From a virus, in the IMG/VR virus record IMGVR_UViG_3300036791_000462, positions 32,001 through 96,000 of that record: a stretch of DNA of 64,000 nucleotides; one strand, given 5' to 3'. The translations under genes were made by a program, and so were the position numbers. Below, one piece after another: positions 7,547 through 46,645 of the stretch; position 1 is the stretch's first letter; every line of letters begins with the position of its first letter. The notes beneath the pieces were generated by a model. The model was not told the origin of the DNA. It saw nothing but the letters and a program-made list of their open reading frames with translations, and did no database searches.

Positions 7547-9385
7547 CTACCTCCTCGTGCTGGACGCAAGCCCTACGGTCAGCTTGCCTGTCAGGTCGCC
7601 GCGCCGCTGCTGGATGGCCTGAACCTTCTGGCGCTCCTCATTGGTCGCGCCGCTGCCCGGCTGCAGGCGTTTCTGTAGCTGCGCGCCACCGAGATCCTCC
7701 AGATGCACCAGGTGAATCGGAACGTGCGTCAGCCCGCGCTCCTGCGCGACCTGGAACGTGGAGTTGCCGTCGAGGATCCGCATCGTCCCGTCAGGCTCAC
7801 GGCGGACCATCAGCGGCTTGCGTTTATCCATCTCTCCGCGCTTGGCCTTGTCCATGAACCCTGCCGCTTTCGCGACGTGCTCGGCGGTGTCCTGTCGCGA
7901 CGGGGTGAGATCGCGGACACGCACCAAGTCGTGCGGCTTGCGCAGGTCGAAGTAGTCGGATGCCATCTCCGCTCCGTGCGCTGCGCTACCACCCCCGCTC
8001 GGTTTTAGGCGGTTGAACACCTCCGACCATTTCCCGCCGCGCCCCCTCGGGTGCAGGCGAGCGTTCCAGAACGCCTCAGCCAGCCTGGCGCGGAGCACAC
8101 GTTCGCGAGCAAGGGCGCGAGTGAACTCCGTGCCGTTGGCGGCTGCCTTCCGGGCGATGATCGCCTCGGCCAGCGCCGTCACCGCTGGCGCGAGATCACG
8201 CCCATCCAGGATCGTCGTGTCCGCCGGTGGCGGTGGCTGCTCGGCACGCCCGTCCGGGATCGTGAGGTCCGGCAGGTCACGAACACCGGTCCGGGTCCAG
8301 ATCGGCAGGTCGCAGTCGGGTGTCTGCTCGCGCCCGTCGGGGATCGACATTGACGGGTCGCCGCCGTAACCGAACGCGACGGTTGTTTCCTCCAGGTCCG
8401 GTTGCTGGGCTGGGATCTGCGCGGAGGTCGCAACCTGCACCTTCCCCGTCCGGTGCGGAGTTGCCCCACCTTTCTTCGGCGCGGTGAGCTTCATCTTCGG
8501 CCCGCCGCCGCCGCTGGGTTTGTGCGCCTTCCCGCGTTCGAGCACCGCGACCTCGCCCGGCAGCGGAGCTTGTGCTCGCGCGATCTTCGCGGCCTCCTGC
8601 TTCGCTAGCTGTTTCTTGAGTGCCTTCACGGCCCTGAGTGCTCCTCTCGCGTTCTTCTGGGCGGTTCTCGCGGTACGTGCCGCTGCTTGCGCGTCCCTGT
8701 GCGCGATGGCGCTGCCGCCGACGGCGGCGGCTTTGGCTTCCTTCGCGAGCTTCTCGGCGTTCGCGGCAGCGGTCTGTGCCTGCGCGGCGTCGTGGCGTGC
8801 CCACATCAGGTTTGTGTCGTGTCCCGTCTGACGCGCTTCCTTGGACGTTTGCTGCCCGGCGGCGATGGCGGCTTTCGTTTCACCGGAGACGGTCGTGTTC
8901 GCCTGCGCCTGCGCGGGAGTGATCTTCGCGACGGACGCTCTCGACGTGCTCGACTTCGAGGTGGACCTGCTGGTGGACCTGGACTTCTTGGGGGCGTACG
9001 GGCCGATGCCCCGCATGCGCTGCACCTGATCGAGCGTCTGCGGCGGCGGGTTCTGCAGCAGCGTCATCGTCGCGGCGTCCACGCCCATGCTCGGACTCAG
9101 CCCGTAGCGCTTCTGGAACGTCTGCACCGCCTGGGTGGTCGCCGGACCGTACTGGCCGTCCACCGGCACCTTGAACCCAAGCTCGTTCAGGCGCTGCTGC
9201 AGTTGCGCGGTCGTCTGATCAGGGCCGCTGGCGGTGTACCCGTCGCCGTGTTTGACGATCCACTGCCCACCACGCCCGCGTGGGTGAAGCTGATTGAAGT
9301 TCCCACCGGCCGTCCCACCGGTGCGGCTCTGCGGTTTGGTCTGCGGTTTGGGTGGCGGAGGCGGCTTCGGTGAGATCAGCGGCAC
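7547..9385 (-). CDS. HPRGRGG-tagged multidomain protein: peptidoglycan-binding domain + Lys/Ala-rich linker + ParB/Srx-like domain
   Basis: LQQRLNELGF...DGQYGPATTQAVQTFQ (PG_binding_1); two HPRGRGG motifs; PLMVRR...RILDGNSTF...GLTHVPI. Confidence 0.75.
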   Translation of the reverse strand: MPLISPKPPPPPKPQTKPQSRTGGTAGGNFNQLHPRGRGGQWIVKHGDGYTASGPDQTTAQLQQRLNELGFKVPVDGQYGPATTQAVQTFQKRYGLSPSMGVDAATMTLLQNPPPQTLDQVQRMRGIGPYAPKKSRSTSRSTSKSSTSRASVAKITPAQAQANTTVSGETKAAIAAGQQTSKEARQTGHDTNLMWARHDAAQAQTAAANAEKLAKEAKAAAVGGSAIAHRDAQAAARTARTAQKNARGALRAVKALKKQLAKQEAAKIARAQAPLPGEVAVLERGKAHKPSGGGGPKMKLTAPKKGGATPHRTGKVQVATSAQIPAQQPDLEETTVAFGYGGDPSMSIPDGREQTPDCDLPIWTRTGVRDLPDLTIPDGRAEQPPPPADTTILDGRDLAPAVTALAEAIIARKAAANGTEFTRALARERVLRARLAEAFWNARLHPRGRGGKWSEVFNRLKPSGGGSAAHGAEMASDYFDLRKPHDLVRVRDLTPSRQDTAEHVAKAAGFMDKAKRGEMDKRKPLMVRREPDGTMRILDGNSTFQVAQERGLTHVPIHLVHLEDLGGAQLQKRLQPGSGATNEERQKVQAIQQRRGDLTGKLTVGLASSTRR

Positions 9386-14813: not shown

Positions 14814-15210
14814 GGTTCTCCCCCTCGGTCGGCTTGTCGGGAAAACGCTGCAAATACTGCGGCGAAGCGATCAGCTTCGCCCCCTGGTTCAGCACCTCGG
14901 TAACGGAATGCCACGAGTCGTACAGGTACACGGGAACGTCCACCGTCAGCGCTTCGCCGAGCCCCAGCGTCAGCGCATCGTCACCGAGATCAACCTTCAA
15001 CTGCTTGGTGAACCACAGGTGCGCAGCGCAGCGGTAGAGCGGGTCATCGCGCATCAGATTCTGGGCCAGGATCCGAAAGACGGCGATGCCCTTCGGGTCA
15101 AGCTGAGGGATCACCTCCAGCGGAAGCTGCTTCTCGTAGCCGTGCTCTCTGCCCAGCGCGTACACCGTGAACACGCCCTGCAGATCGACTGCTTTGGCGT
15201 CGTCAAGCAC
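14803..15210 (-). CDS. Hypothetical protein
   Basis: Likely GTG start overlapping upstream stop. Confidence 0.5.
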   Translation of the reverse strand: MLDDAKAVDLQGVFTVYALGREHGYEKQLPLEVIPQLDPKGIAVFRILAQNLMRDDPLYRCAAHLWFTKQLKVDLGDDALTLGLGEALTVDVPVYLYDSWHSVTEVLNQGAKLIASPQYLQRFPDKPTEGENRDA

Positions 15211-15643
15211 GTGGCGTCCTGTCCGGCATGCGCTGGATGAACTCGCGCTCGCGCAGCGCCGGGTAGATGCTCGGCGCGTGCTCGCGCCTGCCGTTGCGCC
15301 GCCCATCCTCGTAGGCGGGCGAGCGGTCAAACTCGGGGTCGTCGCTGTGACGCTGGTAGAGCTTGGTCGCGAACTCTGGGGCACCGAACGCGAGCGTCAA
15401 CGCTGGCTGGTCGCGCGTGAAGTTCTCCAGCGCGTCAGCCATCCCGTCAGCGAACCCCTGCCCGTACGGGATCAGGTCTTCGTTCAGCAGCGGATCGTTG
15501 GGGTGGGGTTCGCGCTGCTGCTGGTAGCGCATCGCGGCGAACGCGGCGTTTGGTGCGGTGTAGCCAAGCTGCAGCTTCTCGCGGTCGCCGCGCATCAGCG
15601 CAGCGGTCGTTTCGCGCAGCGACATCTCATACGGTTCAGCCAT
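15203..15643 (-). CDS. Hypothetical protein
   Basis: ATG after GACCGAGGAG and a degenerate promoter repeat at 15650-15692. Confidence 0.55.
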   Translation of the reverse strand: MAEPYEMSLRETTAALMRGDREKLQLGYTAPNAAFAAMRYQQQREPHPNDPLLNEDLIPYGQGFADGMADALENFTRDQPALTLAFGAPEFATKLYQRHSDDPEFDRSPAYEDGRRNGRREHAPSIYPALREREFIQRMPDRTPRA

Positions 15644-15689
15644 CCGGCTCTCCTCGGTCGGGTAGACCAAGGGTAGCACACGACAGGAG

Positions 15690-15977
15690 CTACGGGAAAC
15701 GCATGTCGCTGTGATGCTTGGTGCTTGACCGACGCGCCGTGAGCCTCACCTCGAAGATCACCAAGGCGCTCATGTCCACCACCCACACCCGGCCCTCGTA
15801 CGCGGCGCGGTACGCGGGCTCTGCCCACTGGATCGTACGCTTCCACTCGTGGCGCTCATCGCGGTCATGCGGCCAGCGGATCCGGGCGACCGCCCACGGC
15901 CACACCCGGCTCCAGTCGGTAATCCCCTGCATCTTCTTGCGGCCCAGCAGCACACGAATCTGCTCCGCCGGGGTCAT
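15690..15977 (-). CDS. Hypothetical Trp-rich protein
   Basis: MTPAEQIRV... portion of ORF 15690..16247. Confidence 0.45.
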   Translation of the reverse strand: MTPAEQIRVLLGRKKMQGITDWSRVWPWAVARIRWPHDRDERHEWKRTIQWAEPAYRAAYEGRVWVVDMSALVIFEVRLTARRSSTKHHSDMRFP

Positions 15978-16017
15978 CGCCCGACCCGTGAACTCGTCGG
16001 GATGCCCGCGCGGCAGA

Positions 16018-16749
16018 CTAGCCTGCAGCGGCTCCAGTATCGCCCCCACTTCCTCCGGTCCTTTCATCGTCGGACTGCAAGTCACGCGGAACCCCGAAGT
16101 CGGCAGCCAGTTGCGGGTCGATGGGAGGTGCCCCTTGATCCCACCCCGGCGGCGGTGTCCACGTTTGCTTGCCCGCACCCTTGCGATAGCGCAGCGGTTC
16201 CGGGGAGCCCGCCTCGAACGGCACGTCGATTCGCATCCCGGCGTCACGAATCTGCGTTTCGGTCATCCCCCCGGCCGGTAGCTCACTGGCCTGCGGGGGG
16301 TTCGGCAGGTCGCTGCTTGAGTCCGCTTCGCTCAACTGGTTCAAGTCCTGCAGCCACTGCGGGTCGTCGCCCGCGAAGTCCTCGTCCACCGGTCCTTCGG
16401 GCTCGGCGACGCCCTGCACCGGCTCGGTCAGACGGTGCCTGCCGCCGACCATCCCGGCGATCTCCTCGGCGCTGGACGGCCACAGGTCATCCTGCGCCTG
16501 GGGGTTGGTCATCCACCCGTTGTCGTTCTCAGAGAACGTGTCGCCGTCACCCGGTCCTGTCTGGCGGTACGGTGTCGTCCCGTCACGCAGCCAGTAGGTG
16601 TAGTCGCCGCCTTCGTAGTCCGATCTTGGTGGTCCCGGCAGCGGGCGTTGCGGCAGTGTTTGCGACGGGTCCGTTTCGCGGTTGACCGTCCCGCCTGGAT
16701 CGACTGGTGCGAGCGGGTCGCGGGCCTCGTCCAACTCGTCGGCCATCAC
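16018..16749 (-). CDS. Acidic low-complexity protein coupled to Zeta/RelA gene
   Basis: GTGA overlap; Asp/Glu/Pro-rich; LSEA site. Confidence 0.6.
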   Translation of the reverse strand: MMADELDEARDPLAPVDPGGTVNRETDPSQTLPQRPLPGPPRSDYEGGDYTYWLRDGTTPYRQTGPGDGDTFSENDNGWMTNPQAQDDLWPSSAEEIAGMVGGRHRLTEPVQGVAEPEGPVDEDFAGDDPQWLQDLNQLSEADSSSDLPNPPQASELPAGGMTETQIRDAGMRIDVPFEAGSPEPLRYRKGAGKQTWTPPPGWDQGAPPIDPQLAADFGVPRDLQSDDERTGGSGGDTGAAAG

Positions 16750-19604
16750 GCCACCCTCGGGCGCAGCACCCCGGTGAGCCGATTGCCCCGACGGGCGCGG
16801 TTACCTGTTGGTTCCTGGGTGCCTGCCAGGATCGCGTTGGTGCGCGCGGTCAGGCCCTTCAGTTCTCTGGCGGCAGCGCGCTGCTCGTCGCGGGTGCCGA
16901 GAATCACCTCGTGCGGGTCCGCGACGAGCCCGCCGTGCTGGGACACGCCCCACGCCCGGTCGTAGTACGGCTTCGCGGCTTTCTGCAGGTCCGCGACAAC
17001 CTGTTTCTCGGCCGGTGTCGGCTCGCGTTTCTGCTGTTTGGCAAGCTCCTCGACCTGGCGTTCCAACTCGTAGTAGTGGTGGCCCGGCCCGATCTCCTTC
17101 GTCCACCACAGCGGGTTGGTGTTGACCTGAAGCTCGGTCGTCAGCCCACCGGCGGACTCGGGTGCGCGCAGGATCAGGGTCGTGTCGCCGTACCCGTTCT
17201 CCGTCGAGCGGTTCGACCCGTTCGCGTCCACCAGACGGCGTTTCATCCGCTCCACCGTCCAGCCCTTCGCAGCGACCTGCTGGCGGATCGTCGCGAGCGT
17301 GTGTTCGAGATCCTGCGCGGTCGGGACGGTCACCGTCGCACGAACCGCGTCGTGCAGGTCAGAGAAGTCGTTCGCGTGACCCAGCGACGCCTGCTTCGCA
17401 ATCGCTCGCTTCAGGCTCTTGATCGGCGCGACGATCAGGTGCGGCTGGTCCATGTTGTGCTGGATGTCCTGCCCGGTCTGCTGGAAGCTCTTGCCCTGCG
17501 AAATGTCGTGCTTGGTCCCGCCAAGCTGGTCGATCACGCCGGTGCCGATGTCGAGGATCTGCTGCAACGCCGGAAGCGTTTTCGACTCGCCTCGCGCGAG
17601 AAGCTCCTGCGGGTCGCTGACCGGCTGTTTCTTCTTCTCCCCGTCGCCGGTGATCCCGAACTGGTCGCGCATCGACTGAAACTCCTTCGAGACGTTGCGG
17701 CCCACACGACGCTCGACCTCGGGGTTCGTTCGGGTCGTCTGCCCGCCCGTTTTCCAGACGCCGCGCTTCGGGCCTGCCACGTCACGCACGCCAGGTAGCT
17801 GCTCGTGCGCCTTGGCGAGCACCTGCGCGTACGCGCGGTCGGCAGGGATCGCGTAGTCCGAACCGTCGAGCTTCTTGTCCTCCGCGCCCGACGGGAAGCT
17901 GATCTTGCCGTCCGGCAGCGCTTGGGCTACGAGCCTCGGTGGGTTCGGTCGGCCGGACGCTTCGTCCAACCCCTGGTTGGTGTCGTACACGTGGACTCGC
18001 GCGCCCATCTGCGCCGCCTTGTCCATCACGCCGGGGATCGTCGCGGACACGTCGCGGTGGACCGCGCGCATGATCACGTCGGGGATCATGCGACCGCCCG
18101 CCTCGGCGTTCGCACGCGCCTTCTCGGCACGGTCCTTCGCGCGGCTGATCGCGTCGTTCGTCGGCGTGCTGACGTAGGAGATGCGCGGGTTGACGTACCC
18201 CGCGTCGGTGAACGACTTGACGCGCTTGGCGACCTCGTCGGCGTTCGTGTTCGTGATCCCGTCCACGATCACGTTCAGCTTGCGCTTCTGCGCCTCCGCC
18301 ATCACGTGCTGCGCGATGTCCCACGCCTCGGCGTACACCCGCAGGTTCGCCTCCGGGTCATCCGCCGAGCTTGCCTGAAACTCGGGTAGCTCCGCCTTGA
18401 TCAGGTCCGGGTCGAGGAGCAGCGCGTTCTGAGGCAGCGCATCCGGGTCGTCAGGGTGCTTCTGGCTGAGCATGTGCAACAGCCCGCCCTTCCCGGCCGC
18501 GTACCCACCGCCGGTGAACATCACGGTCGGCTTGCCGGACGGCGCTTTCAGATACGAGTTCGTTTTGCTGAGCCCCCGGTCGTTGCCCTTCGCGTCCAGG
18601 TTGTGCTCGCGCAGCATCATGTCGATGATCCGCGCGTGCAGCTTCGCGCGGGACTGGTCCCACGTGCCGTCCGGGTTGCGGTACATCTCAGCGGTCGTCG
18701 GCCTGGTGGTCGCATCCTCCGCGTACGCCAACAGCGTTTTCTGGGACACGCGGCCCGCATCGTTGAAGTGAACCTCCGCTTGGCTCAGATCATGCTCACC
18801 GCGAACCTGCCCAGCGGCCGGGGTTGAGCGTGACAGCCCGACGCGACGCACCCGGCGGCCGATCCGCTTCTCCAGCGACTTGGTGCGCCGTTCGTACAGC
18901 GCCGACTGGCCGTGCGCGAGCGTCTGCTTACGGTCGTGGATCGCGTTGGTGTGCGCCTGCTCCTTCGCGAAGTGCTCCGCCGCCGCCGCGTGGTCACCAC
19001 GTTTCGCTGCCGCGTTGCCCGCCTTGCGTTCCTGGGTCGCGAGCCGCTCCAGGCGCTGGCGTCCAGCGAGGTGAACCTTCTGCGCGTCGGTGGCCTCCTG
19101 TTTGAACTGGCGCAGGCTCATCGCCTCCGGGAGCGTGCCGCCAGTCTGCACCGCCTTACCCGCAGGATGCGGTTCGGGGGTCGCGAACACGGGAAACTTC
19201 CCGCCTCTGACGCCAGCCCGGCGGCCCTTCAGCACCTTGATCTCGCCCGGCATCCGCTCCGTCGGTGGGCGCTGGATCGTTTTCAGACGCGGGCCTGAGT
19301 GAACCGCTTTCGCGATCCGGTTCTGCGGCACGACCTCGTGGGAGCGGAGCTTCGCGTCGGCAAACGCGCCGCCGAGCTTGTCGATCCACTTCCCGCCACG
19401 GCCGCGCGGGTGCAGCACCTCGGTCCAGTCAACCTCCTGCAGGCCGGTGAGCGCCAGGTCGAGCACGCCTGCCTGCTCCCACAGGTCAAGTTCGGTGTGC
19501 GACACCCAGCCGATCCGGTCCAGATCGTCGGTGGTGGCGAGCCCCCGGCGCAAGAACTCCTCTCGGAGGGTGGCGTTCTCGCGCGCAATGGTGGCAGCCT
19601 CCAT
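16746..19604 (-). CDS. HPRGRGG-tagged fusion: Zeta-toxin-like P-loop kinase + RelA/SpoT-like synthetase
   Basis: FTGGGYAAGKG, LLDPDLIK, NVIVDG (Zeta); IKSLKRAIAK, DAVRAT, NGYGD, ELQVNT, GHHYYE (RSH synthetase motifs). Confidence 0.8.
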   Translation of the reverse strand: MEAATIARENATLREEFLRRGLATTDDLDRIGWVSHTELDLWEQAGVLDLALTGLQEVDWTEVLHPRGRGGKWIDKLGGAFADAKLRSHEVVPQNRIAKAVHSGPRLKTIQRPPTERMPGEIKVLKGRRAGVRGGKFPVFATPEPHPAGKAVQTGGTLPEAMSLRQFKQEATDAQKVHLAGRQRLERLATQERKAGNAAAKRGDHAAAAEHFAKEQAHTNAIHDRKQTLAHGQSALYERRTKSLEKRIGRRVRRVGLSRSTPAAGQVRGEHDLSQAEVHFNDAGRVSQKTLLAYAEDATTRPTTAEMYRNPDGTWDQSRAKLHARIIDMMLREHNLDAKGNDRGLSKTNSYLKAPSGKPTVMFTGGGYAAGKGGLLHMLSQKHPDDPDALPQNALLLDPDLIKAELPEFQASSADDPEANLRVYAEAWDIAQHVMAEAQKRKLNVIVDGITNTNADEVAKRVKSFTDAGYVNPRISYVSTPTNDAISRAKDRAEKARANAEAGGRMIPDVIMRAVHRDVSATIPGVMDKAAQMGARVHVYDTNQGLDEASGRPNPPRLVAQALPDGKISFPSGAEDKKLDGSDYAIPADRAYAQVLAKAHEQLPGVRDVAGPKRGVWKTGGQTTRTNPEVERRVGRNVSKEFQSMRDQFGITGDGEKKKQPVSDPQELLARGESKTLPALQQILDIGTGVIDQLGGTKHDISQGKSFQQTGQDIQHNMDQPHLIVAPIKSLKRAIAKQASLGHANDFSDLHDAVRATVTVPTAQDLEHTLATIRQQVAAKGWTVERMKRRLVDANGSNRSTENGYGDTTLILRAPESAGGLTTELQVNTNPLWWTKEIGPGHHYYELERQVEELAKQQKREPTPAEKQVVADLQKAAKPYYDRAWGVSQHGGLVADPHEVILGTRDEQRAAARELKGLTARTNAILAGTQEPTGNRARRGNRLTGVLRPRVA

Positions 19605-20213: not shown

Positions 20214-21965
20214 TCAGGTCGCCTGAATCCGGACGTGCATCGCCTTGCGGTTCAGCACGACGCGGACCTGGTGCCCGTTGCGGATCAGACGGCGCAGAAC
20301 GCCGCATGTCTGGCCCTTCCCATTCAGTTCGCGAATGAGAACCTCACATGAGGTCTTCGAGCCCTTCGAGTTGAGCCACAGCACGTTGCGATGACCCTTG
20401 CGCAGGTAGCTCACTCGCTCGCCAACGAGGCAGCGCAGCACCGGCGGCTTGCTACCAGTGGGGGCCACGTACGGAGGCGGCGTGTCAACGACAGGCATCG
20501 GGTAGACGCCCGGCATCGTCGGGGTCGTGACCGGCACGACAGTCGGCGCTGGGGTTGTCGCCCCGGTGCCTGAGCCCGTCCCTGAGCCCGTGCCCGTAGC
20601 GGGCGGGATGACCGGCAGCGGCGGGGTGCCAGCAGTGGCGTTCGTGAACGTCACCTCGGTCACACCAGCGCTGATCGTGGCTGTGATCGTCCCTGCGGAC
20701 AGGCTGTCCGAGACGAAGTCGGCCGATGGGTCAACCGCTTCGCCGATGACCGACAGTCCGGTCGTGGGCGTTTCGGTGATCGTCTCGGTCGCGCTGAGCG
20801 GGAACGAGCCCGCGATGGCGCAGAAGCCAGCCGGGACGCTCAGCGTCTGGCCGCCGATGGTGAACTTGAACACCTGGCCGACGGTGACGCCGGTACCCGC
20901 GTTCTTGCAGACCTTCAGCAGACCCGGTGCGGCCGGGACGTTGGTGTAGAACACGTCCGTCTCGCCGGACCCGAGCGTCACGCTGACGTTCCCGCCATTG
21001 AGGTCGGTCGAGCCTGGCACCGCGCGGTTGTCGGTCACGTTGATCGCGCTGACAGCCGTGCCTGGGACGGCGGTTTCGTGGATGTTCAGAACGGTCCCGC
21101 CTGGGTACGGAGTCGGGATCAGCACACAGCTACCTGGGAACGGTTCGGCAACGGCGGTGTACGTGTTGCCGCCGACCGTGAACGAGTAGATCGTCCCGTT
21201 CAGGCTGGACGCCCCCGCGATCTTGCAGATCTTCAGCCGCGAGGTTGAGTTGACGAACGTCTCGATGACTTCGTTGTTGACATCGGTGCCCTGCGGGACG
21301 TTGACCTCGGTCGTGTCAGCGGCGAGGTTGTCGGACAGCAGGTCGGTCGAGGGGATCGTGGAGACGGCCACCAGGTCGGTGTTGTTCGACCCGATCTCGT
21401 TGACCTGATCCGTTCCGGCTGGCACCCGGAACGAGTCCGAGCAAGCGCCGACCGGCACGCCCGAGACGACCTTGTCGAAGCCCATCGGCCCCTTGACCTC
21501 GAACGTGAACGTGCCCGTCAACCCGGAGCCCTGCGCTGCTGATTTGCAGATCTCCAGAGTGCCGAACATCTCTTTGTTCGTGTATTCGACCGTGGTCGCG
21601 GTCGAGATGTCGCCCGCCGCGACCGTGACCACATCCGTGCGTGTGCTCAGGTTCGAGGACACGAGGTCGGCCTGCGGGATCGTGTCGGTCGCCGTCTCAG
21701 CCGTGAAGGTGTTCGACGCCTCCACGACCGTGTGGTTGCCAGCAGGCACCTGCAGCGGTGCCGAACACTGCCCGGTGAGCACAACTACCTGGTGCCCATC
21801 GACCGTGAACGTGAACGGCCCCGTCACCGGCGCGGTGGAGTCTGAGTGCTTGCAGATCTCCAGGAATCCGGTTGGTACGGCGGTCGGTACGGACGCGCTC
21901 GCGAGCGCCGGTACGACCAGGGCGGCGACAGCGACAGCTACCGCCACCAGAATGACTTTCTTCAT
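20214..21965 (-). CDS. Secreted/surface protein with four Ig-like (pilin/SpaA-like) repeats
   Basis: Sec signal MKKVILVAVAVAVAALVVPALASA; repeats starting LEICK/LEICK/LKICK/LKVCK, each with a second Cys and ending [FY]xN; Pro/Thr stalk; basic C-terminal domain. Confidence 0.75.
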   Translation of the reverse strand: MKKVILVAVAVAVAALVVPALASASVPTAVPTGFLEICKHSDSTAPVTGPFTFTVDGHQVVVLTGQCSAPLQVPAGNHTVVEASNTFTAETATDTIPQADLVSSNLSTRTDVVTVAAGDISTATTVEYTNKEMFGTLEICKSAAQGSGLTGTFTFEVKGPMGFDKVVSGVPVGACSDSFRVPAGTDQVNEIGSNNTDLVAVSTIPSTDLLSDNLAADTTEVNVPQGTDVNNEVIETFVNSTSRLKICKIAGASSLNGTIYSFTVGGNTYTAVAEPFPGSCVLIPTPYPGGTVLNIHETAVPGTAVSAINVTDNRAVPGSTDLNGGNVSVTLGSGETDVFYTNVPAAPGLLKVCKNAGTGVTVGQVFKFTIGGQTLSVPAGFCAIAGSFPLSATETITETPTTGLSVIGEAVDPSADFVSDSLSAGTITATISAGVTEVTFTNATAGTPPLPVIPPATGTGSGTGSGTGATTPAPTVVPVTTPTMPGVYPMPVVDTPPPYVAPTGSKPPVLRCLVGERVSYLRKGHRNVLWLNSKGSKTSCEVLIRELNGKGQTCGVLRRLIRNGHQVRVVLNRKAMHVRIQAT

Positions 21966-26179: not shown

Positions 26180-27199
26180 TCAGAGATACTCGCGGTTGGC
26201 GATCACCTGGTCGCGGTATTTCGGTGGCAGTGTCTCGCACAGAAGCAGCCGGTCGGACGATTCGCGCGCCTGCTCGATCTCACCGAGATGCCAGGCGGCG
26301 ATGGATAGCTCAAATTCGCAGCCCCATTCGTACACCCAGCGGTGGACGAACAGCGCGTCTTCGGACATCGGGATCCGCGTGCCACGCTCAGCGACAACGT
26401 GCGCGGCGGCCCAGAACGCACGGTGACGCATCCGCCACGCGATCTCGTACAGCGGCTCGGCTCTGCTCGGGCGAAAGCTCCACGCTGCCAGCAGCCGCTC
26501 GATGTCGCCGGTCAGCTTGCCGATCTCGTACAGCGCGCAGAAGTGCTCCTCGGTCCAGCCGCCGAGCGCGGCGCGGTGCTCGTAGACGCTGAGCGCCTCG
26601 TCGCGACGGCCGAGGTCGCGCAGCGTGTTCGCGAGGTAGAAGACGGTGCGCGGGTCGTTGGGGTGGCGCTCGTTCTCGTCGGACAGGAGCTTCAGGTCAC
26701 GCTCGAACTTCTCCGGGCGATGCCCACCATCGCCGCTGTGCAGCACCGTGATCGACCGCAGACGCTGCGGCGGGATCTCCGCCTCGTTCGTCGCGATGTA
26801 CTCGTGCGTCGGCCCCACGAAAAACCAGTGTTTGTGACCTGACACCAATCGTTTGATCCAATACTCCGGGTCACCCTCATGGCGCAGCATGTAACTATCC
26901 ACCGCAAGGTTCAGTTCGACCTCGTCGTATGTGACAGTGTGGTCGGCGTCGAGCAGCAGCAGCCAGTCAGCTTTCCCGTACGCCAACTCCATCAGTTCGG
27001 TGCGGTTGTGACCAAAGTTCACCCATTCGCGTTCGTGCAGTTCACCGGGTATTCCGCTGCTTTCGATCAGGCGTTGGGTGCCGTCCTGGCTGCCGGTGTC
27101 AACGACCACAAACCTGTCCACCAGGCGGCGAACAGACTCCAGGCAGCGAACAATCGTGCTCGCCTCATCCCGAACGATCATCGCCAGCGCGATGCTCAG
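26180..27199 (-). CDS. Glycosyltransferase family 2 with C-terminal TPR repeats (start uncertain)
   Basis: MIVRDEA, VVVDTGSQDGT, NFGHNR, LLLDAD, THE; FYLANTLRDLGR TPR-like helices. Confidence 0.85.
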   Translation of the reverse strand: MSIALAMIVRDEASTIVRCLESVRRLVDRFVVVDTGSQDGTQRLIESSGIPGELHEREWVNFGHNRTELMELAYGKADWLLLLDADHTVTYDEVELNLAVDSYMLRHEGDPEYWIKRLVSGHKHWFFVGPTHEYIATNEAEIPPQRLRSITVLHSGDGGHRPEKFERDLKLLSDENERHPNDPRTVFYLANTLRDLGRRDEALSVYEHRAALGGWTEEHFCALYEIGKLTGDIERLLAAWSFRPSRAEPLYEIAWRMRHRAFWAAAHVVAERGTRIPMSEDALFVHRWVYEWGCEFELSIAAWHLGEIEQARESSDRLLLCETLPPKYRDQVIANREYL

Positions 27200-28073
27200 G
27201 ACCGCCCCCGCCTTCGGCTCTCGCGTGCCATCGGTAGCAGGATCAGCAGCAGGTATGCGACACAGCCCACCTGCAACCCCGAACCGGCCATCAGGCGTCG
27301 CCCCACCATTCCTCGTCCTGGGTTTCGGTGTACCAGCGCGAGCCGTGCTGAGGCATTGGTCGTGCGCTCCGTCCGTGCGGGCCGGGGAGCGCCCCGGCTG
27401 CCCACGCTGTGCCACTGGGCGGGCATGACTGGCTACCCCGCAGGTGGACCGGGTCAGGGGTGGTGCAAGCATCGGCGATGGCGTCGAGGCGACGCAGAGC
27501 GTGCTCGCGAGCGAGGTCGTGCGTGAAGGTCATCCGCCGCTCCGAAGCGGCTGTCGGTGGGCCATCCGTACAGCCTCTTTCCACCGAGCCCATGTCCCCG
27601 ACGGCGGCTCACCTTCGCGCCCTGGGAACTCGACCACCTTCTTGCAAATGGTGCAGACCGCGACACCATCGGGGTATCGCGTGAGGTCGTGAACCGGCTG
27701 GCCTGGTCGGCATACCTTCCGGACTCCTGAGCCGCCGCACGTCGGGCATGTATCGACCGGCGGGTCGTCCAGCCACTCGGGTCTGTGGCTCACGCCCGTG
27801 CCATCGCAGTCGGAGCATTGCATCAGCGTCTCCACCCGATCACGAGCGCGCGCTGGGACAGGTACTCGCCCCACTCGTTGCGACGCCACGGGCGCAGGAT
27901 GATCGCCTTGCTCGCATACCGGTTGCCCTCGCGGTCCAGCGTTGTGGCCTCGTCCACGATCCGGTAGCAGGTGCCCTGAATGCAGGTCGTGACGATCAGC
28001 CGCCCGAAGCGCTGGGCACGGAAGCGGTAGCGTCGCTCGGGTTCACGGCCCGCGCTCCTGCTCGCATAGTCGT

Positions 28074-37124: not shown

Positions 37125-37517
37125 TTACAGCGTTGCGCCTGCTGTCGCGAGGATGTTGCGCAGCGTGCCTGTCGGGATCGAGCCGGTGTGCGTTGGGACG
37201 ATCACGCGCCTGCCGCCGTCGGGGTGTTCGAACACGGCGTGGCTGCCTTTCTGGCCGACTCGTTTGAACCCGGCTTTGCGGAGCATGCGGTGGATCTGCT
37301 TGGCTGTCATCGCTGGCAGCTTCGAGGGTGGGTGCGCTGCGTGGATCACGCCTGAGAGCGTGAACTCGCCGCTGCGGTTACGCGGGTGCAGGATCTCGTC
37401 CCACGCGAAGTGCGACGGGTCGCGACGTTCGAGGATCAGGGTCGCGGCGCGCATCGCTACCGGTCGGCTCAGGCCGCGCGCTTCGTGGATCGCGACCTGG
37501 TCCCAGTAGCCGGGCAT
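37125..37517 (-). CDS. hicA: HicA-family mRNA interferase with N-terminal HPR-tag extension
   Basis: MLRKAGFKRVGQKGSHAVFEHP...VIVPTH...IPTGTLRNIL; N-terminal WDEILHPRNRSGEF. Confidence 0.85.
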   Translation of the reverse strand: MPGYWDQVAIHEARGLSRPVAMRAATLILERRDPSHFAWDEILHPRNRSGEFTLSGVIHAAHPPSKLPAMTAKQIHRMLRKAGFKRVGQKGSHAVFEHPDGGRRVIVPTHTGSIPTGTLRNILATAGATL

Positions 37518-37759
37518 GGCCGGATCGTAAGGTGGTCTGGCGACCCGGTCACAGATCGAACCGGGTCGCCTGGTTTTTGCGGAGGCTCTGGCGGGATCTG
37601 TCCCTCAGGTTGGGTCGCCGCCCTCCTCGTGCTCTACGTCTCTAACCGTGCTCGCGGGCTCGGGTGTGACATCCACCTCGTAACGTCTGACGTGTGTTGT
37701 AGGTTCCCGCGTGGCACGGCTGGTCTGAGCGCCCTCGCTGAAAATGCGGGGGCGCTGCC

Positions 37760-40843: not shown

Positions 40844-43519
40844 TTAGGCTAATCCCTCGGTTTTGAATGTCCGGTCCAGGTCGCTGACGTTGATGCCCTT
40901 CTCGGCCAGCGGGCCTAGTGATGCTGCGTCTCGCAGCCGTGCCAGATACGCCTGTGCCGGGGAGATCTTCATCACTCCCAGCGCGTTGGACACGTCCCGG
41001 TGGATCCGGTCGATCTGCTCAGCCGGAATGTTTTGGCCCTGCATCCACCTGTCGGCGACTGTCATCGCGTGGTGATGCTCAGCGCTGCGCACTCTTGGCG
41101 CTTCCGCTGTCACCGGTCGCGGGGTCGGCGCTGACGGTTGGTCGATCTGGTCGCCCGCGACCCACAGGCGTCCGCCGTCTTTGAGCACGACCAGCGCGTT
41201 GTTCTCGTTCACGTCGAAGACCGTGCCGTCCAGTTGCCGTCCTGAGCCTGCCAGCGCGAACTTGACCTGGTCGCCCGCCTGCACCTTGCGTCCGCTGGCG
41301 GTGGTGACGGTCGGCATCTCCGTTTTGATGTCGGACAGGTCGGGTGTGACGACGGGGTCAAACGTGCTGTGCGTGATTTGCTTCGCGTCGGGGTGAAGGA
41401 GCGCGCCTCGTAGCGTCTTGACTCCTGGTCGTGACTGTTGCGCGAGCGCGATCAACTCCTGGTGCTGGTCGGCGGTGGCGCGCTGGAACTTCAGTTCGCG
41501 GAGCTTGGAGCGGCGCTGCTCGTCGCTCAGGCCCGCGCTGCGCATGATCGCCCCAACCTGCGCACGGTATTTCGGGTAGGTGCCGCGCACGCGGTAATCC
41601 ATCGGGTGGCGTTTGACGGCTTCGAGCACGTCGGTCATCCCGTAGCTGCGTAGCCAGTCGGCGACCTCCAGGTGTCCTGTCTCCTCGGTCAGCGCCTCCT
41701 CAACGTTGACGCCGAACCCCTTGTAGTCCTGTGCCTGGATGCCGCCGAGCACGCCGACGCCGTGGTTGATCTCGTGCTGGAGGATCTCCAGGTCGTTGTA
41801 GAAGTTCAGCCGCTCGTTGTCGGTCTGCTGCTTACCTTCGGCGCGGGTGGTGAGGAAGTCGCTGGCGTTGTCGAGGTAGCGCTGCTTGATCCCTATCGAC
41901 CCGTTCCAGCGGTGGATGCCAGCGGCGTTGCGGGGGATCCGCTCGGCGTCCACGTGCTTGACGTTCTGCTCGGTTTCGTAGCGCTTGGCGAGTTCGTCCG
42001 CGCGGCCGAGTACGTCGGTCAGCAGTTCGTCCAGGTTCTTCGGCGCTTGGCCGTGTGGCAGCCGGGTGCGGTTCTGCGGGACGATCTCGACCTTCGAGAT
42101 GTTCGGAGCGCGTCTGAGCGCGCCCCCGATGTACTGCGGCTCGACGGTGAGTCTCACGGTCGAGCGGTCGGGCAGGACCAGCTTGCTGGAGAGCGTCGGC
42201 GTGGTGCCGGGCTCCTGGGGTAGCTTCACGGCCCCGAGACGTTCCAGTAGCTGCGTCGCGCTGTACACGTCCATGTTTCCTAGCTCGTGCAGCAGCGCCT
42301 TGTTGTCACGGCCGACCAGCGCCGCTTTGATCGCCTCGTCCTTCTGCACGGCCTCCTCGCGCTTGCGCTTGATCTCGTCCTGAGCCTCCTGCCAGACGCG
42401 CACGTCGTCGGCGCGCTGCTCGGGCGTCACGATCATGTGGTCCCAAACCATCGAGCCGTGGCCCGCGTTGACGACCTCCAGCGGACGTTGGTACTCGGGG
42501 TCTGAGGGGTTGCCGCCTCGGCGCATGTGCAGCACGAGCGAGTCGGGCGGCTGGCCGGGGCCGACCTCCTTGTCGAACCGGGTGACGCCCTCCACGCCTT
42601 CGGGGAGGCTGCCTGCGGATAGCTCGCCACGGTTCTGGGACACCTTCATCCGCCAGCCCGAGTCGATGGTGTGCAGCGCGTTGACGACAGTGTTGGCGTT
42701 GTCGCCCGGTTTGACGTGGGCGAACGGGTTCTCCTGGATCGCGGCGAGCTTCGCGCTCGCGACCTCGCTGTCGGTTGGGCGAAACGCGGTGACCTTGCCG
42801 ACCTGCACGCCGCCGGGGGTGTCGTCCACACGCAGCGCACGGCCCTGCCCGTTGGGGTGAACGAACTCCATCCAGTCGTCGCCGTTTTCGTTGACGACCT
42901 TCGGGCGGCTGTAGCCCGCACCGCGCATCGAGTTGCGAACGGTCTGCGGGTCGCCGTGGGTCAGCAGCGCGGCGACCGGGTCGCTGTTCGGGATCGGGGG
43001 GTGCAGTTCGGCGCTGGCGTCGGCGACGGTGCCGCCTGGTGCTTCGCCGAACCCTGGTCCCTTGAGCGTCAGGTGCAGGTCCGCTCCCTGCGTGTGCGAA
43101 CGGAAGACCTGTTTGCGGTTGTCGCCGCTGACGTAGTGGAAGTCAAGCGGCATCGGGTGCCCGCCGCGAGCGGCGGTTTCGAGCGACATCGAGCCGCTGC
43201 GGATCTCGCTCATCGTCTGGCCGATCAGCCCGGCGGCGAGGTCGTGCGACGGGTGTGTCTCATCGAGGATCGCGGGCGGGCGCTCCAGCGTTTCGATCCA
43301 CTTGCCGCCGCGTCCTCGCGGGTGCTCAAACGCTTTGAAGTCCGCTTCGCTGATCTCGCCGTACAGCGACTGTTCGATCTCGCGGTCGATCTGCTCAAGC
43401 TCGGCGCGGTCCTGTGCGCTCATCTGATCCCAGTTGCGCCGGGCCTGTTCGATCTCCTGCTCGGTGGGTTCCTCAGCCCCGACCTGGCCGTCGGTGATCT
43501 TCAGCGGTTCGGGGTTCAC
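40844..43519 (-). CDS. HPRGRGG-tagged multidomain protein with gluzincin metallopeptidase motif
   Basis: ISEADFKAFEHPRGRGGKW; LQHEINHG...VEEALTE; SH3-like VQAGDQVKF...GTVFDV. Confidence 0.7.
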   Translation of the reverse strand: MNPEPLKITDGQVGAEEPTEQEIEQARRNWDQMSAQDRAELEQIDREIEQSLYGEISEADFKAFEHPRGRGGKWIETLERPPAILDETHPSHDLAAGLIGQTMSEIRSGSMSLETAARGGHPMPLDFHYVSGDNRKQVFRSHTQGADLHLTLKGPGFGEAPGGTVADASAELHPPIPNSDPVAALLTHGDPQTVRNSMRGAGYSRPKVVNENGDDWMEFVHPNGQGRALRVDDTPGGVQVGKVTAFRPTDSEVASAKLAAIQENPFAHVKPGDNANTVVNALHTIDSGWRMKVSQNRGELSAGSLPEGVEGVTRFDKEVGPGQPPDSLVLHMRRGGNPSDPEYQRPLEVVNAGHGSMVWDHMIVTPEQRADDVRVWQEAQDEIKRKREEAVQKDEAIKAALVGRDNKALLHELGNMDVYSATQLLERLGAVKLPQEPGTTPTLSSKLVLPDRSTVRLTVEPQYIGGALRRAPNISKVEIVPQNRTRLPHGQAPKNLDELLTDVLGRADELAKRYETEQNVKHVDAERIPRNAAGIHRWNGSIGIKQRYLDNASDFLTTRAEGKQQTDNERLNFYNDLEILQHEINHGVGVLGGIQAQDYKGFGVNVEEALTEETGHLEVADWLRSYGMTDVLEAVKRHPMDYRVRGTYPKYRAQVGAIMRSAGLSDEQRRSKLRELKFQRATADQHQELIALAQQSRPGVKTLRGALLHPDAKQITHSTFDPVVTPDLSDIKTEMPTVTTASGRKVQAGDQVKFALAGSGRQLDGTVFDVNENNALVVLKDGGRLWVAGDQIDQPSAPTPRPVTAEAPRVRSAEHHHAMTVADRWMQGQNIPAEQIDRIHRDVSNALGVMKISPAQAYLARLRDAASLGPLAEKGINVSDLDRTFKTEGLA

Positions 43520-45042
43520 GTCTTCCTCCGCTTCGCTGCGGCGGCGGCTCTGCGTGCCGTCTCGGCTTCCACGTCGGCGTCCTGGCGGCGCTGCTGTTCA
43601 GTCCAGACGACGGCCTGTAGCTCGTGCGGTTTGAGCCCCACCCTGTCGGCGACGGCGTGCACACGGTTCGCGGTCCACAGGTAGCCGCTGTTCTTGGCGG
43701 TGGGTTTACCTGAGCCGATCACGATCTCGCCCGCCTTGTCGTAGTCGGCACGGGCGGTTTCGCCGAGCAGCGCGCGGGCCATCAGCGTGTCCACGGTGAC
43801 GGTCGTCGGCTGGTCGGGGAACGCGAGGTTGTTGTAGAAGCTGCGGGTCTTCGGGTAGCTCAGCACCGCGTCGGGGTTCTCGCCTCGGTACAGGCGCAGC
43901 GCGGCTTTCAGCGAGTTGCGCATCATCGTCGGGCGCTCCAGCCTGGCAGCGAGCGCGTTCGGGTCTTCGTTGGGATGCGCCCTGGCGATCTTCATCGCGC
44001 GCAGCGCCGCTTCGAGGTTCTCGTACTTGCCCGCTTTCGGGCCGGTCTGCCACTGCCAGCGCATGCGCGGTGAGGTCGCGGCAACCATCGCGGTCAGCAC
44101 CGCCGGGTCCACGTTGTTCTTTGCGGCGACCTGCCCGATCAGGTTGTGCGCGTCGGCGTACCAGCGCGCGTCGTGCTCGCCGTGACCGGTGCTCATCGCC
44201 TGGCGGTACATCTCCTCGAAGCGAGCCTCCGCCTGGGCGTCGGTTAGCTCCACGCGGCTGTGTTCGTGTCCGCGCTGCTCCAGCGGCGTGACGCGGCCGA
44301 GGTCGCCCTGTTCCTGGGCGGTCGGTTCGCGGGTGTGCTTGTCCCACTCCTCGGGGAGTCCCAGCCCGATGCCCTTCTTGCCGGGCGCGGTGTAGACGGT
44401 GACGTGCGGCGGCGGCACGGGGATCTTCTCGCCCGCCTGTTCGGAGAGCTTGTCGTACAGATCGGAGGCACCCTCGACTTTTGCGGGGATCACGAGCGAA
44501 CGTCGATCACCCTTCTCGGCGATACGCCACGGCGGTCCGATGTGCGTGACGCTCACCGGCGCGTTCTGCACCTGGTTGGCCATCTGCTTCAGCGTCGCCT
44601 CGTCGGTGATGGAGGTCGCGCGCTTGACCCGCCGGGAGTCGAACATCGTGACGTGCGGGTTTCGCACCTTCTCCCAGCGCTCACCGCCGACGGTGATCGT
44701 TTGCGGCAGGTCGGGCAGCTTGACCTCCAGCCCCCGGTAGTGCTCGCCCTTGTGCAGCGAGGAGGTGATCCACTTGCCCCCACGTCCGCGCGGGTGCTCC
44801 AGGTCATCCCAGACGCTTTCGGTTAGCTCGCTGTCGCCGTTGCCCGCGAGCGCCTGCACCTGCTGCCAGAACTCCCAGTCGTCGTCGTGGGTCGCGTCGT
44901 CCGGTGGGAGCGACAGGTCGGGCCAGCGGTCGCTGACAGTCGCAGCGGCTTGCGCCCAGTCTGGGCCGCCGCGTTTGACGACCTGCAGATCGCCGGGTTT
45001 CCAGGCGAAGCGGTCGGTGGGGTCGGGTTCCTCGACGGCCAT
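43516..45042 (-). CDS. HPRGRGG-tagged fusion: 2H phosphoesterase + HhH glycosylase-like (DUF7178-like) domain
   Basis: Two HxT motifs (NPHVTMF, PPHVTVY); WYADAH, AATSP, KTRSFYNN, VTVDTLMAR, ELQAVVW; leaderless start MAVEE. Confidence 0.75.
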   Translation of the reverse strand: MAVEEPDPTDRFAWKPGDLQVVKRGGPDWAQAAATVSDRWPDLSLPPDDATHDDDWEFWQQVQALAGNGDSELTESVWDDLEHPRGRGGKWITSSLHKGEHYRGLEVKLPDLPQTITVGGERWEKVRNPHVTMFDSRRVKRATSITDEATLKQMANQVQNAPVSVTHIGPPWRIAEKGDRRSLVIPAKVEGASDLYDKLSEQAGEKIPVPPPHVTVYTAPGKKGIGLGLPEEWDKHTREPTAQEQGDLGRVTPLEQRGHEHSRVELTDAQAEARFEEMYRQAMSTGHGEHDARWYADAHNLIGQVAAKNNVDPAVLTAMVAATSPRMRWQWQTGPKAGKYENLEAALRAMKIARAHPNEDPNALAARLERPTMMRNSLKAALRLYRGENPDAVLSYPKTRSFYNNLAFPDQPTTVTVDTLMARALLGETARADYDKAGEIVIGSGKPTAKNSGYLWTANRVHAVADRVGLKPHELQAVVWTEQQRRQDADVEAETARRAAAAAKRRKT

Positions 45043-45052
45043 TCTACCTATT

Positions 45053-46645
45053 TTAGCGCACATCCTGTGCTTGCGGCGGCAGGGCTTCCAGGATCACGCT
45101 GCGGTTGCCCCACTGGTCCTCGTTGACCTCCGCGACGCGGAACGTCGTGTTGCGGGGCAGCAGCACCTCGGACTCGGGTAGTCCCGAGCCGCCGCCGATG
45201 TGCAGTCCTTCCTCGAACGCGAAGGCGTGGATGCCAGCCGGTAGCCGGATCGAGGTCACCTCGTCGCCGGGTCTGGCGGCTATCGGGCTGCGCAGTGACG
45301 TGGACACGAACGCGGGATCGCGGACCTCGTCGCCGACGTGCAGGTTCGCGAACTGGCCGACCGGGCCGCCTCGGTAGACGGTGACGTTCTCCTTCAGGGT
45401 GGACTTGCCGATGGCGGAGTCGAGCCGGTCGATCATCTGTCCGACGGTCGCGCCGCTCGGGGGTGTCGAGTACCACGCCGACGGCGAGTCGCGGGTGACC
45501 TCGGGGTTGAGGTTGCGCAGGAACTCGTTGACGTGCACGAACCCGGACGCCTGGTAGGACGACAGCGCCCACTGTTCGTCGGTTGTCGTGCCGCTGCTGG
45601 TGAACGCCTTGTTCGCGAACTCGCGGGCGGATTGCATCTGGGTTTTGAACTCGCCCTCGTCGGATGGTTCGCGAGCACCGAACCCCTGCGTCTGCCACGA
45701 CTCGGGCTCGGGCCACTTCGCAGGCTCAGGCTCTGGCGGCTGCTCGCGCAGGTCAAGCTCGCCTTTCCAGTGGGAGCCGATCATCAGTTCCTTGCCCGGC
45801 CAGTTGCGCGTCTTGGGCGGGCCGGTGCCGGTCGAGTAGTCGTGACGTTCGGGTGGGGTTTCCCACCACCAGTGATCGAGCCCCCATCCGGCTAGCTCCG
45901 CTTCGGAGCCGAACTCCCCGGCGGTCAGCTTGCGCTCCAGTTCGGTCATCGTCTGCTCGGTGGCGCGGCTGGCGATCTGTTTCCAGCGGCCGTCCTTCTT
46001 GGCGTCGGCGAGGATCTGTTTCTGCACCGCCTGCTTGTTGCCGGTCCAGACGAACCCGCGTCTCGCCCAGGCGTAACCGCCGACGGACACCGCTTCCACA
46101 TCGGCCTTGTCCACCCCGGCGTCGCGCAGCGTGCCGAGGAAGTGGTTGGTGAACGCCGCCCCGAACCCGTTGCCCTGCTCGGAGCCGCGCAGGTAGATGT
46201 TCGACAGTTCGGCATGCCGTTCGCCACGGAGGTTCGGTGGCTTCAGCGTGACGCGAGCGAGCCCCACCGGTTCGATCTCCCCGACCTTCTGGAGGTTGAG
46301 CCACACCTCCCCGTACAGGTTCTGGGTTTTGGTGCGACCGGAGCGGACAGCGACGATCCCGGCGTGCTGGAACCCGTCCATCGCTTTGGCGAAGTCCTCG
46401 CCGGTGAAGCTCTCCCCGACACGTGGCGCTGCGGGTTTCGCGACACCTGGCTCGGGCGCAGATGTGTGGTGGTGGATGCCGCTGGTGATCCACTCGCCGC
46501 CCCGACCGCGTGGGTGTAGCCACTCGATGAAGTGCGCTTCCTGTAGCTCCTCGCCGTCGTTGTCGGTTGGCACGTCCACGGTCGCGAGCAGGCGTGCGAC
46601 CTCGTCTTCGGGTACGCCGAGGAACAACGCAGTCGGAACGGTCAT
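45053..46645 (-). CDS. HPRGRGG-tagged fusion: GNAT acetyltransferase + R-S-E ADP-ribosyltransferase (VIP2/Alt-like)
   Basis: EQGNGFG acetyl-CoA motif, GGYAWARRGF; Y...VNEFLR, VYRG, FVSTS, ESEVLLPR. Confidence 0.85.
   Translation of the reverse strand: MTVPTALFLGVPEDEVARLLATVDVPTDNDGEELQEAHFIEWLHPRGRGGEWITSGIHHHTSAPEPGVAKPAAPRVGESFTGEDFAKAMDGFQHAGIVAVRSGRTKTQNLYGEVWLNLQKVGEIEPVGLARVTLKPPNLRGERHAELSNIYLRGSEQGNGFGAAFTNHFLGTLRDAGVDKADVEAVSVGGYAWARRGFVWTGNKQAVQKQILADAKKDGRWKQIASRATEQTMTELERKLTAGEFGSEAELAGWGLDHWWWETPPERHDYSTGTGPPKTRNWPGKELMIGSHWKGELDLREQPPEPEPAKWPEPESWQTQGFGAREPSDEGEFKTQMQSAREFANKAFTSSGTTTDEQWALSSYQASGFVHVNEFLRNLNPEVTRDSPSAWYSTPPSGATVGQMIDRLDSAIGKSTLKENVTVYRGGPVGQFANLHVGDEVRDPAFVSTSLRSPIAARPGDEVTSIRLPAGIHAFAFEEGLHIGGGSGLPESEVLLPRNTTFRVAEVNEDQWGNRSVILEALPPQAQDVR

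Follow-up and report, generated by a model that had tools for sequence, protein, structure and literature searches.

The question raised by the locus described here is what a virus gains from a single protein that joins two nucleotide-directed enzymes, and what the small genes behind it are for. The locus lies in a 64,000-nucleotide stretch of viral DNA (hereafter the window), bases 32001-96000 of the linear 107-kb IMG/VR record IMGVR_UViG_3300036791_000462, the completeness of which is estimated at 86%. An initial annotation had read two adjacent open reading frames (ORFs) of the window as a tagged fusion of a Zeta-like kinase with a RelA/SpoT-type synthetase, followed by an acidic partner. 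Both domain assignments were upheld, the kinase by Pfam and fold and the synthetase by profile and fold, and a third gene was found to follow that of the partner. We propose that the three genes form an effector module of a large uncultivated phage, the main product of which would be packaged, delivered and restrained by its co-translated partners, and we put the chances of this account holding or failing at about even.

A Zeta-type kinase and a RelA/SpoT-type synthetase in one polypeptide

The effector gene (P0001) occupies 16746..19604 of the minus strand and encodes 952 amino acids, comprising in order a leader with the tag, a basic helical region, the Zeta-like kinase, a linker and the RelA/SpoT homologue (RSH) synthetase. 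The gene of the acidic partner (P0002) lies directly downstream at 16018..16749 on the same strand and encodes 243 amino acids. Both ORFs stand as they were first drawn, and each has a coding signal (G+C at third codon positions, GC3, of 0.87 for the effector and 0.78 for the partner) as well as homologs. Those of the effector (n=30, identity 31-83%) are all on metagenomic contigs, and every contig found with a member of the family is metagenomic or viral, many being 105-127 kb long. No effector relative was present in one genome each of 185,579 prokaryote species, and the gene is thus not a mobile toxin-antitoxin cassette or a prophage gene; the phages that carry it are probably virulent. Two database entries, P0033 and P0024, were considered as a split form of the effector and rejected, since they look like fragmentary gene calls, and a P0033 search of viral contigs found nothing.

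The Zeta/AvrRxo1-type P-loop kinase (17805..18812, minus strand; residues about 265-600) was recognised by Pfam, by an AlphaFold2 (AF2) model, by VIA and by hhalign. Pfam Zeta_toxin (PF06414) matched residues 355-541 with an E of 1.7e-22 and 80.3 bits, against a cut-off of 22.3. The AF2 model of residues 265-625, with a predicted local distance difference test score (pLDDT) of 87.7, gave VIA Z scores of 19.0 to AvrRxo1-ORF1 (248 residues aligned), 17.4 to zeta and 15.9 to PezT, and these Zeta-type folds were separated by a gap from polynucleotide and nucleotide kinases at Z about 11; Foldseek on the same model reached an E of 4.5e-9. A search of the PDB with the Zeta part as a single sequence returned nothing, and a long-profile search likewise added nothing.

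The kinase motifs that had first been picked out are all present, namely Walker A GGGYAAGKG with Gly after the Lys (residues 365-373; 18486..18512, minus strand), DPD (398-400) and VDG (447-449). Alignment with the pSM19035 zeta toxin by hhalign (probability 68%, E 4.7e-5) pairs zeta K46, D67, E116, R158 and R171 with K372, D400, D448, R492 and R505 of the effector, all of which, together with D398 and G449, are invariant among 19-22 homologs of 31-84% identity. R158 and R171 of zeta are residues that we take to have catalytic roles. Its D67 is the catalytic base (PMC5923241). Judged from these residues, the phosphotransfer centre of the kinase is predicted to be intact.

One homolog (P0020) carries an intein of ~380 residues (residues about 362-741) within the Walker A loop, in the order GGGYA / intein / SGKGG, at the site corresponding to effector residues 369/370 (about 18495-18498). 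Inteins typically sit at conserved, functionally important sites of their host proteins. That of P0020 has Hom_end and LAGLIDADG_3 domains and ends in ...PTCN, while its first residue, which is not Cys or Ser, suggests a class-3-like intein.

The synthetase domain (16905..17567, minus strand; residues about 680-900) is of the Tas1/Apk1 type, as found by phmmer, profile search and comparison of its AF2 model with known folds. It stands without a hydrolase domain, as first noted, and no HD hydrolase was found in the effector or anywhere in the 107-kb record. Pfam gave no match within effector residues 600-952 at E 0.1, nor did RelA_SpoT (PF04607) match anywhere in the whole record at E 1; Pfam annotation thus misses the synthetase entirely, and such effectors are probably under-counted in viral metagenomes. 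A phmmer search of 1.84 billion representatives with residues 680-952 returned 407 relatives, most of them proteins, up to 4399 residues long, in which the module is internal or C-terminal. RelA_SpoT is matched by 22 of the 37 short relatives of the module (best E 8.8e-10). A profile of the module relatives matched Tas1/Apk1 in the PDB at E 1.4e-21, the exported Streptomyces synthetase SaEAS at 2.6e-6, and RelP, RelQ and RelA at about 1e-4 to 1e-3, and the narrow profile of the effector family by itself reached Tas1 at E 1.3e-10.

The AF2 model of the domain (pLDDT 88.4) agrees with these searches. The top 27 rows in VIA are all RSH proteins, with Z of 11.5-12.7 to SAS1/2, RelP, SaEAS and Tas1 (SAS1, 12.7), and Pol-beta nucleotidyltransferases come next at Z < 7. 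Tas1, at Z 11.7, has the lowest root-mean-square deviation (2.1 A over 150 residues) and the highest identity (25%), and the top Foldseek matches of the model are all RSH as well. The predicted folds, on which the initial annotation had staked its assignments, thus came out as Zeta-like for residues 265-625 and RSH-like for the synthetase. The RSH motifs that it had reported were recovered as APIKS..RA..K (727-737), D752xxR755xT, G804-Y805-x-D807, E824-x-Q826-VNT and H842..Y845; Tas1 and the effector have APxKS..RA..K, DxxRxT and ExQVN[ST] in common. The published list of Apk1 active-site residues includes R330, E382 and N370 (PMC12691689). Apk1 R330 is represented by R755 of the effector, E382 by E824, and the Gln that stands two positions beyond E382 by Q826, all three being invariant; this Gln is printed as 'Q382' in PMC12691689 and is Q384 by our own count.

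Weak matches to PVL-type lectin blades and to multi-repeat database proteins were seen at 17190-17330 (residues about 760-805, before GYGD). We read this likeness as a chance resemblance to a GW.VE...D..G repeat; the matches to the fungal PVL lectin (single-sequence PDB search, E about 2e-4) were repeat-driven, no single stretch being significant, and were attributed to chance. Botulinum light-chain rows in the PDB search with the RSH part (E > 0.5) were treated in the same way.

The acidic partner and a third gene, orfA

The partner is as acidic as first described, with an isoelectric point of 4.05 and 46 Asp and Glu residues against 16 Lys and Arg. The GTGA overlap reported at its start is likewise present: the junction reads GCG TGA TGG, the GTG start overlapping the TGA stop of the effector. 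An alternative ATG one codon later, which would give 242 amino acids, overlaps the effector stop by 1 nucleotide, and this ATG form is conserved in the related loci L005 and L007. All partner homologs (n=23) with a long recorded contig share that contig with the effector, the others being on 1-3 kb fragments. The protein is rich in Pro, Asp and Glu, and searches of Pfam, PHROG, PDB profiles and Atlas gave no lead, nor any likeness to a solved chain.

Conservation of the partner lies in short blocks (alignment A3), the strongest of which is a 45-residue motif, GM.E.QIR.AG..ID.P.E...L.Y....WTPP.G (residues about 160-205; 16135..16272, minus strand). A hidden Markov model of this motif places it after, or fused to, a Zeta gene in 16/16 distinct loci. 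In 12 of them it is found in a small acidic ORF directly 3' of the Zeta gene (the window, L005-L009, L011, the L013 group, L019, L021, L022 and L027), and L010 and L023 have it 3-5 kb downstream of that gene. In the remaining two (L012:7668-10001 and L024:206-2455) the Zeta protein carries the motif as an in-frame C-terminal fusion, and these fusions are a link of the Rosetta-stone type between the partner and the kinase gene. Many of the motif loci are without an RSH domain, and the partner therefore goes with the kinase and not with the synthetase.

The architectures across which the motif persists are diverse. In P0028 and L019:1089-3995 a second Zeta-like P-loop kinase stands in place of the RSH domain, and these second-kinase homologs keep the partner and orfA genes downstream, an arrangement that looks like the C-terminal domain swaps of polymorphic toxins. 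L021 has a Zeta gene without a C-terminal domain, and orfA is present. In L013-L015 and L026 (frame 4416-8885 of L013) the Zeta domain stands at the extreme C-terminus of a 1489-aa protein, in the first 1260 residues of which no Pfam domain was found, and an ORF with a weak partner motif overlaps its end.

A complex of effector residues 265-952 with P0002, predicted with alignments for both, scored 0.55 (best control, 0.00). In the benchmark the mark was reached by 58/80 solved complexes and 2/110 mismatched pairs, scores <=0.60 being those of 7/80 solved complexes and of both passing mismatches. Contact agreement across the runs was at least 12%, and the partner pLDDT at least 49. The acidic protein had initially been suggested as an inhibitor or chaperone of the effector. 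Synteny, the overlap of start and stop, two fusions and, weakly, the complex prediction speak for this idea, which is refined here in two respects: the motif tracks the Zeta kinase with or without RSH, and a third gene joins the module.

This third gene, orfA (15690..16049, minus strand), was absent from the initial annotation and was found by reading beyond the partner stop codon. It encodes a basic, Trp-rich protein of 119 amino acids from a GTG start at 16049, which is preceded by GGAGGAA, and overlaps the 3' end of the partner gene by 32 nucleotides in another frame. Its homologs (n=21) share 64-88% identity, a degree of conservation above that of the effector or the partner. Pfam, PHROG, PDB-profile and Atlas searches gave no lead, and no homolog belongs to a known family. 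The gene follows that of the partner in 5/5 RSH-bearing loci (the window and L005-L008). In a first count of 5/5 against 0/6 it looked like a strict companion of RSH, a view that was softened by the RSH-less metagenome loci L019 and L021; the present count, 5/5 against 2/9, gives a one-sided Fisher p of about 0.01, uncorrected for relatedness. A CGACCGAGGAG leader element lies at about 15650-15674, immediately before the next gene (15203-15679), and the three-gene unit appears to end there.

Proposed delivery and mechanism, and rival explanations

Effector residues 1-60 are conserved even among distant homologs, and the tag that had been ascribed to the protein is HPRGRGGKW (residues 65-73; 19386..19412, minus strand), with LQEVDW just before it; R67 and G71 are invariant in the effector family. 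A regular-expression scan found eight copies of the element in seven window proteins, usually after [LI]xE and an aromatic residue. The six others, with seven copies, are encoded on the minus strand at 7547-9385, 37125-37604, 40844-43519, 43516-45063, 45053-46645 and 46642-49248. They comprise a cytidylate-kinase protein (Pfam E 1.3e-34), an ADP-ribosyltransferase-like protein, two more large near-portal proteins, a HicA-toxin-domain protein and a PG_binding_1/ParB-like protein that carries two copies. Four of the six lie within the run of large, enzyme-bearing genes adjoining the portal gene (49806-51899).

Outside the window, 13 of 146 database proteins that share the RSH module but are otherwise unrelated have an HPRxxxGx[FW] motif upstream of it, where an estimated ~0.2 would be expected by chance; these include one protein that joins inorganic pyrophosphatase (InPase), tag and RSH, and two of the order PG_binding_1, tag and RSH. 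On these occurrences the tag is a widespread inter-domain feature and not peculiar to the present phage; a literature search for its sequence yielded nothing relevant. Among isolated-phage proteins (50,697 records) the sole match was the Zeta part of gp030 of cyanophage PSS2, a portal-adjacent head-morphogenesis protein of 1499 amino acids with a Zeta domain. The sole PHROG match of the effector was also that of its Zeta part, to a 'minor head protein' family. The shared tag fits both PSS2 gp030 and the polyvalent proteins of phages that are packaged and delivered (PMC5512222).

By analogy with Tas1/Apk1, Apk2 and the zeta toxins, it is plausible that the protein is, as initially proposed, a dual host-shutoff or alarmone-reprogramming effector. 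The sequences show which domains are present, that their catalytic residues are conserved, how the genes are ordered and overlap, and which of them co-occur; packaging, toxicity, substrates and the roles of the two small proteins are inferred, as follows. The effector would be made late and kept inactive in the cell that produces it; its leader or tag would bring it into the capsid, and it would enter the next cell along with the DNA. There the kinase would phosphorylate a hydroxyl of a sugar nucleotide or an adenine dinucleotide, such as one resembling UDP-N-acetylglucosamine (UDP-GlcNAc, UNAG) or nicotinamide adenine dinucleotide (NAD). The synthetase would use ATP as the pyrophosphate donor for the 3'-OH of a purine nucleotide, so that its product would resemble the adenosine or guanosine alarmones, (p)ppApp or (p)ppGpp, and both enzymes together would arrest the precursor and nucleotide metabolism of the host. 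The partner would be an inhibitor or chaperone of the kinase, to which its 45-residue motif would dock, and the small basic orfA protein would be a candidate keeper of the synthetase, a role that is a lead rather than a finding and that we regard as possible but doubtful.

A number of observations weigh against this account. In the kinase, Gly follows the Walker Lys in most family members and Ser in few, although a Gly there need not signal inactivity, because GKG is the usual P-loop of adenylate and UMP/CMP kinases. Zeta T118 and R120, which are presumably contacts of UDP-GlcNAc, align in hhalign to I450 and N452 of the effector, and UNAG is therefore no safe guess for the substrate. AvrRxo1 likewise retains the residues for ATP but not those for UNAG; its reaction is at the 3'-OH of NAD, and it also phosphorylates ATP and ADP slowly (PMC5087710). 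In the synthetase, Apk1 N370 aligns to T809 and the neighbouring G to D807, which is invariant in 37/37 relatives; the resulting syn3 motif, GYxD, matches neither the SxH signature of guanosine-type enzymes nor the GxN of adenosine-type enzymes (PMC12226406). Apk1-like enzymes yield (p)ppApp, (p)ppGpp or both (PMC12691689), so that the product of the effector is not readable from homology. Since the substrate-contact positions of both domains differ from those of characterised enzymes, UNAG-3P and (p)ppGpp/(p)ppApp are candidate products only.

The remaining objections concern restraint and delivery. No (p)ppApp hydrolase or HD_4 domain was found in the 107-kb record, and a consumer of ATP working at the rate of Tas1 inside its own host would seem to starve the phage also. 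The partner is predicted to be disordered (Atlas model pLDDT 0.39), its family bears no resemblance to pSM19035 epsilon (hhalign probability 0.1%), and its complex score is in the weak range. Two of the nine RSH-less loci (L019, L021) have orfA as well, the other seven lacking it. A virion location, lastly, is presumed for a protein whose gene is ~30 kb from the portal, amid small genes without assigned function, and in which Pfam found no MuF domain.

Several of these points bear on the possibility that the acidic protein and orfA are assembly or structural factors merely sharing an operon with the effector, for instance as an adaptor in loading, as components of the virion, or as an acidic, scaffold-like counter-ion to the basic region. 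The disorder of P0002, its Pro/Asp/Glu-rich composition and a size far beyond that of its conserved motif all suit such a part, as do the weak complex support and the occurrence of orfA without RSH in L019 and L021. Against this, the motif stays with the Zeta domain across widely differing architectures, that of the 1489-aa protein among them, and is twice fused to it, and we consider such an explanation rather unlikely.

Equally, the same enzymes might not be virion cargo at all but a toxin/antitoxin-like module that acts in the producing cell, with the small proteins as antitoxins, in superinfection exclusion, competition between phages or a timed late shut-off. The position of the gene among small genes and far from the head genes would be explained, toxin-immunity pairs typically have the inhibitor gene second and the codons at the junction overlapping, and phage toxic alarmone synthetases with adjacent inhibitors are known (PMC12226406, PMC12691689). 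However, a plain toxin would have no need of the 330-residue N-terminal part, which is conserved family-wide, the leader and tag are common to the effector and to the portal-adjacent enzyme array, and the want of any relative among the 185,579 species genomes tells against a mobile cassette or prophage gene. We therefore judge action in the producing cell to be unlikely.

A different doubt is that the domains are non-toxic, being takeover or counter-defence enzymes that remodel the nucleotide pool or a signalling nucleotide, whether by AvrRxo1-like 3'-phosphorylation of NAD-like molecules, by pyrophosphorylation of a non-canonical acceptor, or by sequential action on one substrate. In structure the kinase comes closest to AvrRxo1, an NAD 3'-kinase (PMC5087710), and the UNAG-contact residues are not kept; the GYxD of syn3, invariant in 37 relatives, is unlike both known signatures, and other proteins pair the RSH module with an inorganic pyrophosphatase domain. 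Yet the nearest characterised relatives of both domains are growth-arresting toxins, and two dedicated small partner genes suggest activities in need of restraint, so that a non-toxic role also seems unlikely. A bolder version, which we think quite improbable, is that the domains act sequentially on one substrate or on a non-canonical acceptor and make a new phosphorylated nucleotide, that the 45-residue motif is a new kind of Zeta-kinase inhibitor, and that HPRGRGGxW is a general signal for cargo loading or cleavage in the polyvalent proteins of phages; if true, the novel nucleotide would serve host takeover or defeat nucleotide-based defence.

It is very improbable that either or both of the domains have lost catalytic activity and now act purely in binding, since, for all that the Walker A loop has Gly in place of the usual Ser/Thr and Pfam RelA_SpoT fails to recognise the synthetase, every mapped catalytic residue is invariant across 31-83% identity, GKG is a normal P-loop in other kinases, and the intein of a homolog sits in the P-loop.

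The window has a G+C content of 66%, with nearly all genes on the minus strand, and besides the portal a large terminase (62336-63958) and an endolysin gene are recognisable. The terminase is only ~26% identical to those of isolated phages, a megablast of the locus DNA against isolated phages gave no match, and the record represents an uncultivated phage lineage. No immunity-like family was found among the small ORFs neighbouring the effector. Two small genes upstream of the effector, at 20214-21965 (minus strand), is the gene of a 583-aa protein with a hydrophobic, signal-like N-terminus, for which neither Pfam nor PHROG gave a match. A family-2 glycosyltransferase with a stretch resembling tetratricopeptide repeats is encoded at 26180-27472 (minus strand; PHROG beta-1,4-glycosyltransferase, E 5e-27).

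MuF and polyvalent phage proteins are known to include Zeta-like kinases and also RelA/SpoT domains, each on its own (PMC5512222, PMC12226406, PMC12691689). The parts are thus known kinds of microbial weapon, but their combination and its partners appear to be new: the papers searched held no description of a Zeta-RSH fusion, the motif-bearing acidic partner, orfA or the GYxD branch. The locus offers a clean system for asking why a virus carries two nucleotide-directed poisons into, or within, its own host. It also brings forward two unannotated families of candidate inhibitors, one of them a short linear motif that tracks the Zeta domain in 16 loci, and a GYxD synthetase branch of more than 400 sequences with an unassigned acceptor motif.

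Comparison with known systems

The best match of the RSH domain is Tas1/Apk1, the type VI (p)ppApp synthetase of Pseudomonas aeruginosa (PDB 6OX6; PMC12691689). Both lack a hydrolase, and in both the synthetase stands at the C-terminus of a multidomain protein that is delivered, or here would be. The effector differs in that it has no PAAR/Rhs or secretion domain and no recognisable Tis1-like immunity protein, and in its syn3 motif, which is GYxD as against GYSGxN. In the Apk2 MuF toxins of temperate phages (PMC12226406, PMC5576092), an RSH toxin domain likewise ends a phage protein, one associated with the head, and is followed by immunity genes. In contrast, the effector has an added Zeta kinase and no detectable MuF domain, no homolog of IapK or Aph1 was recognised with it, no HD_4 domain was found in the record, and its downstream genes belong to no known family. 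Unlike the Apk2 phages, the present phage is probably not temperate, given that no relatives of the effector were found in the cellular genomes scanned.

The kinase belongs to the same Pfam family as those of epsilon/zeta and PezAT (PDB 1GVN, 3Q8X, 2P5T), shares their fold at Z 15.9-17.4 and keeps the equivalents of K46, D67, R158 and R171. It differs from them at T118 and R120, in its GKG Walker A and in being embedded in a 952-aa protein, while its partner is encoded downstream and is acidic, disordered and unrelated to epsilon. A closer parallel in fold is AvrRxo1-ORF1/ORF2 of Xanthomonas (PDB 4Z8T-V; PMC5087710, PMC5491322), a delivered Zeta-like kinase effector with an inhibitor/chaperone gene downstream, which acts on the 3'-OH of adenine dinucleotides and is the top structural match of the effector kinase. 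AvrRxo1 is, however, a type III effector of a plant pathogen, and its identity to the effector kinase is only 16-17%. Lastly, the polyvalent proteins of phages and conjugative elements (PMC5512222) bring together several effector domains in one polypeptide, just as a single polypeptide of the present viral record holds both a Zeta kinase and an RSH synthetase.

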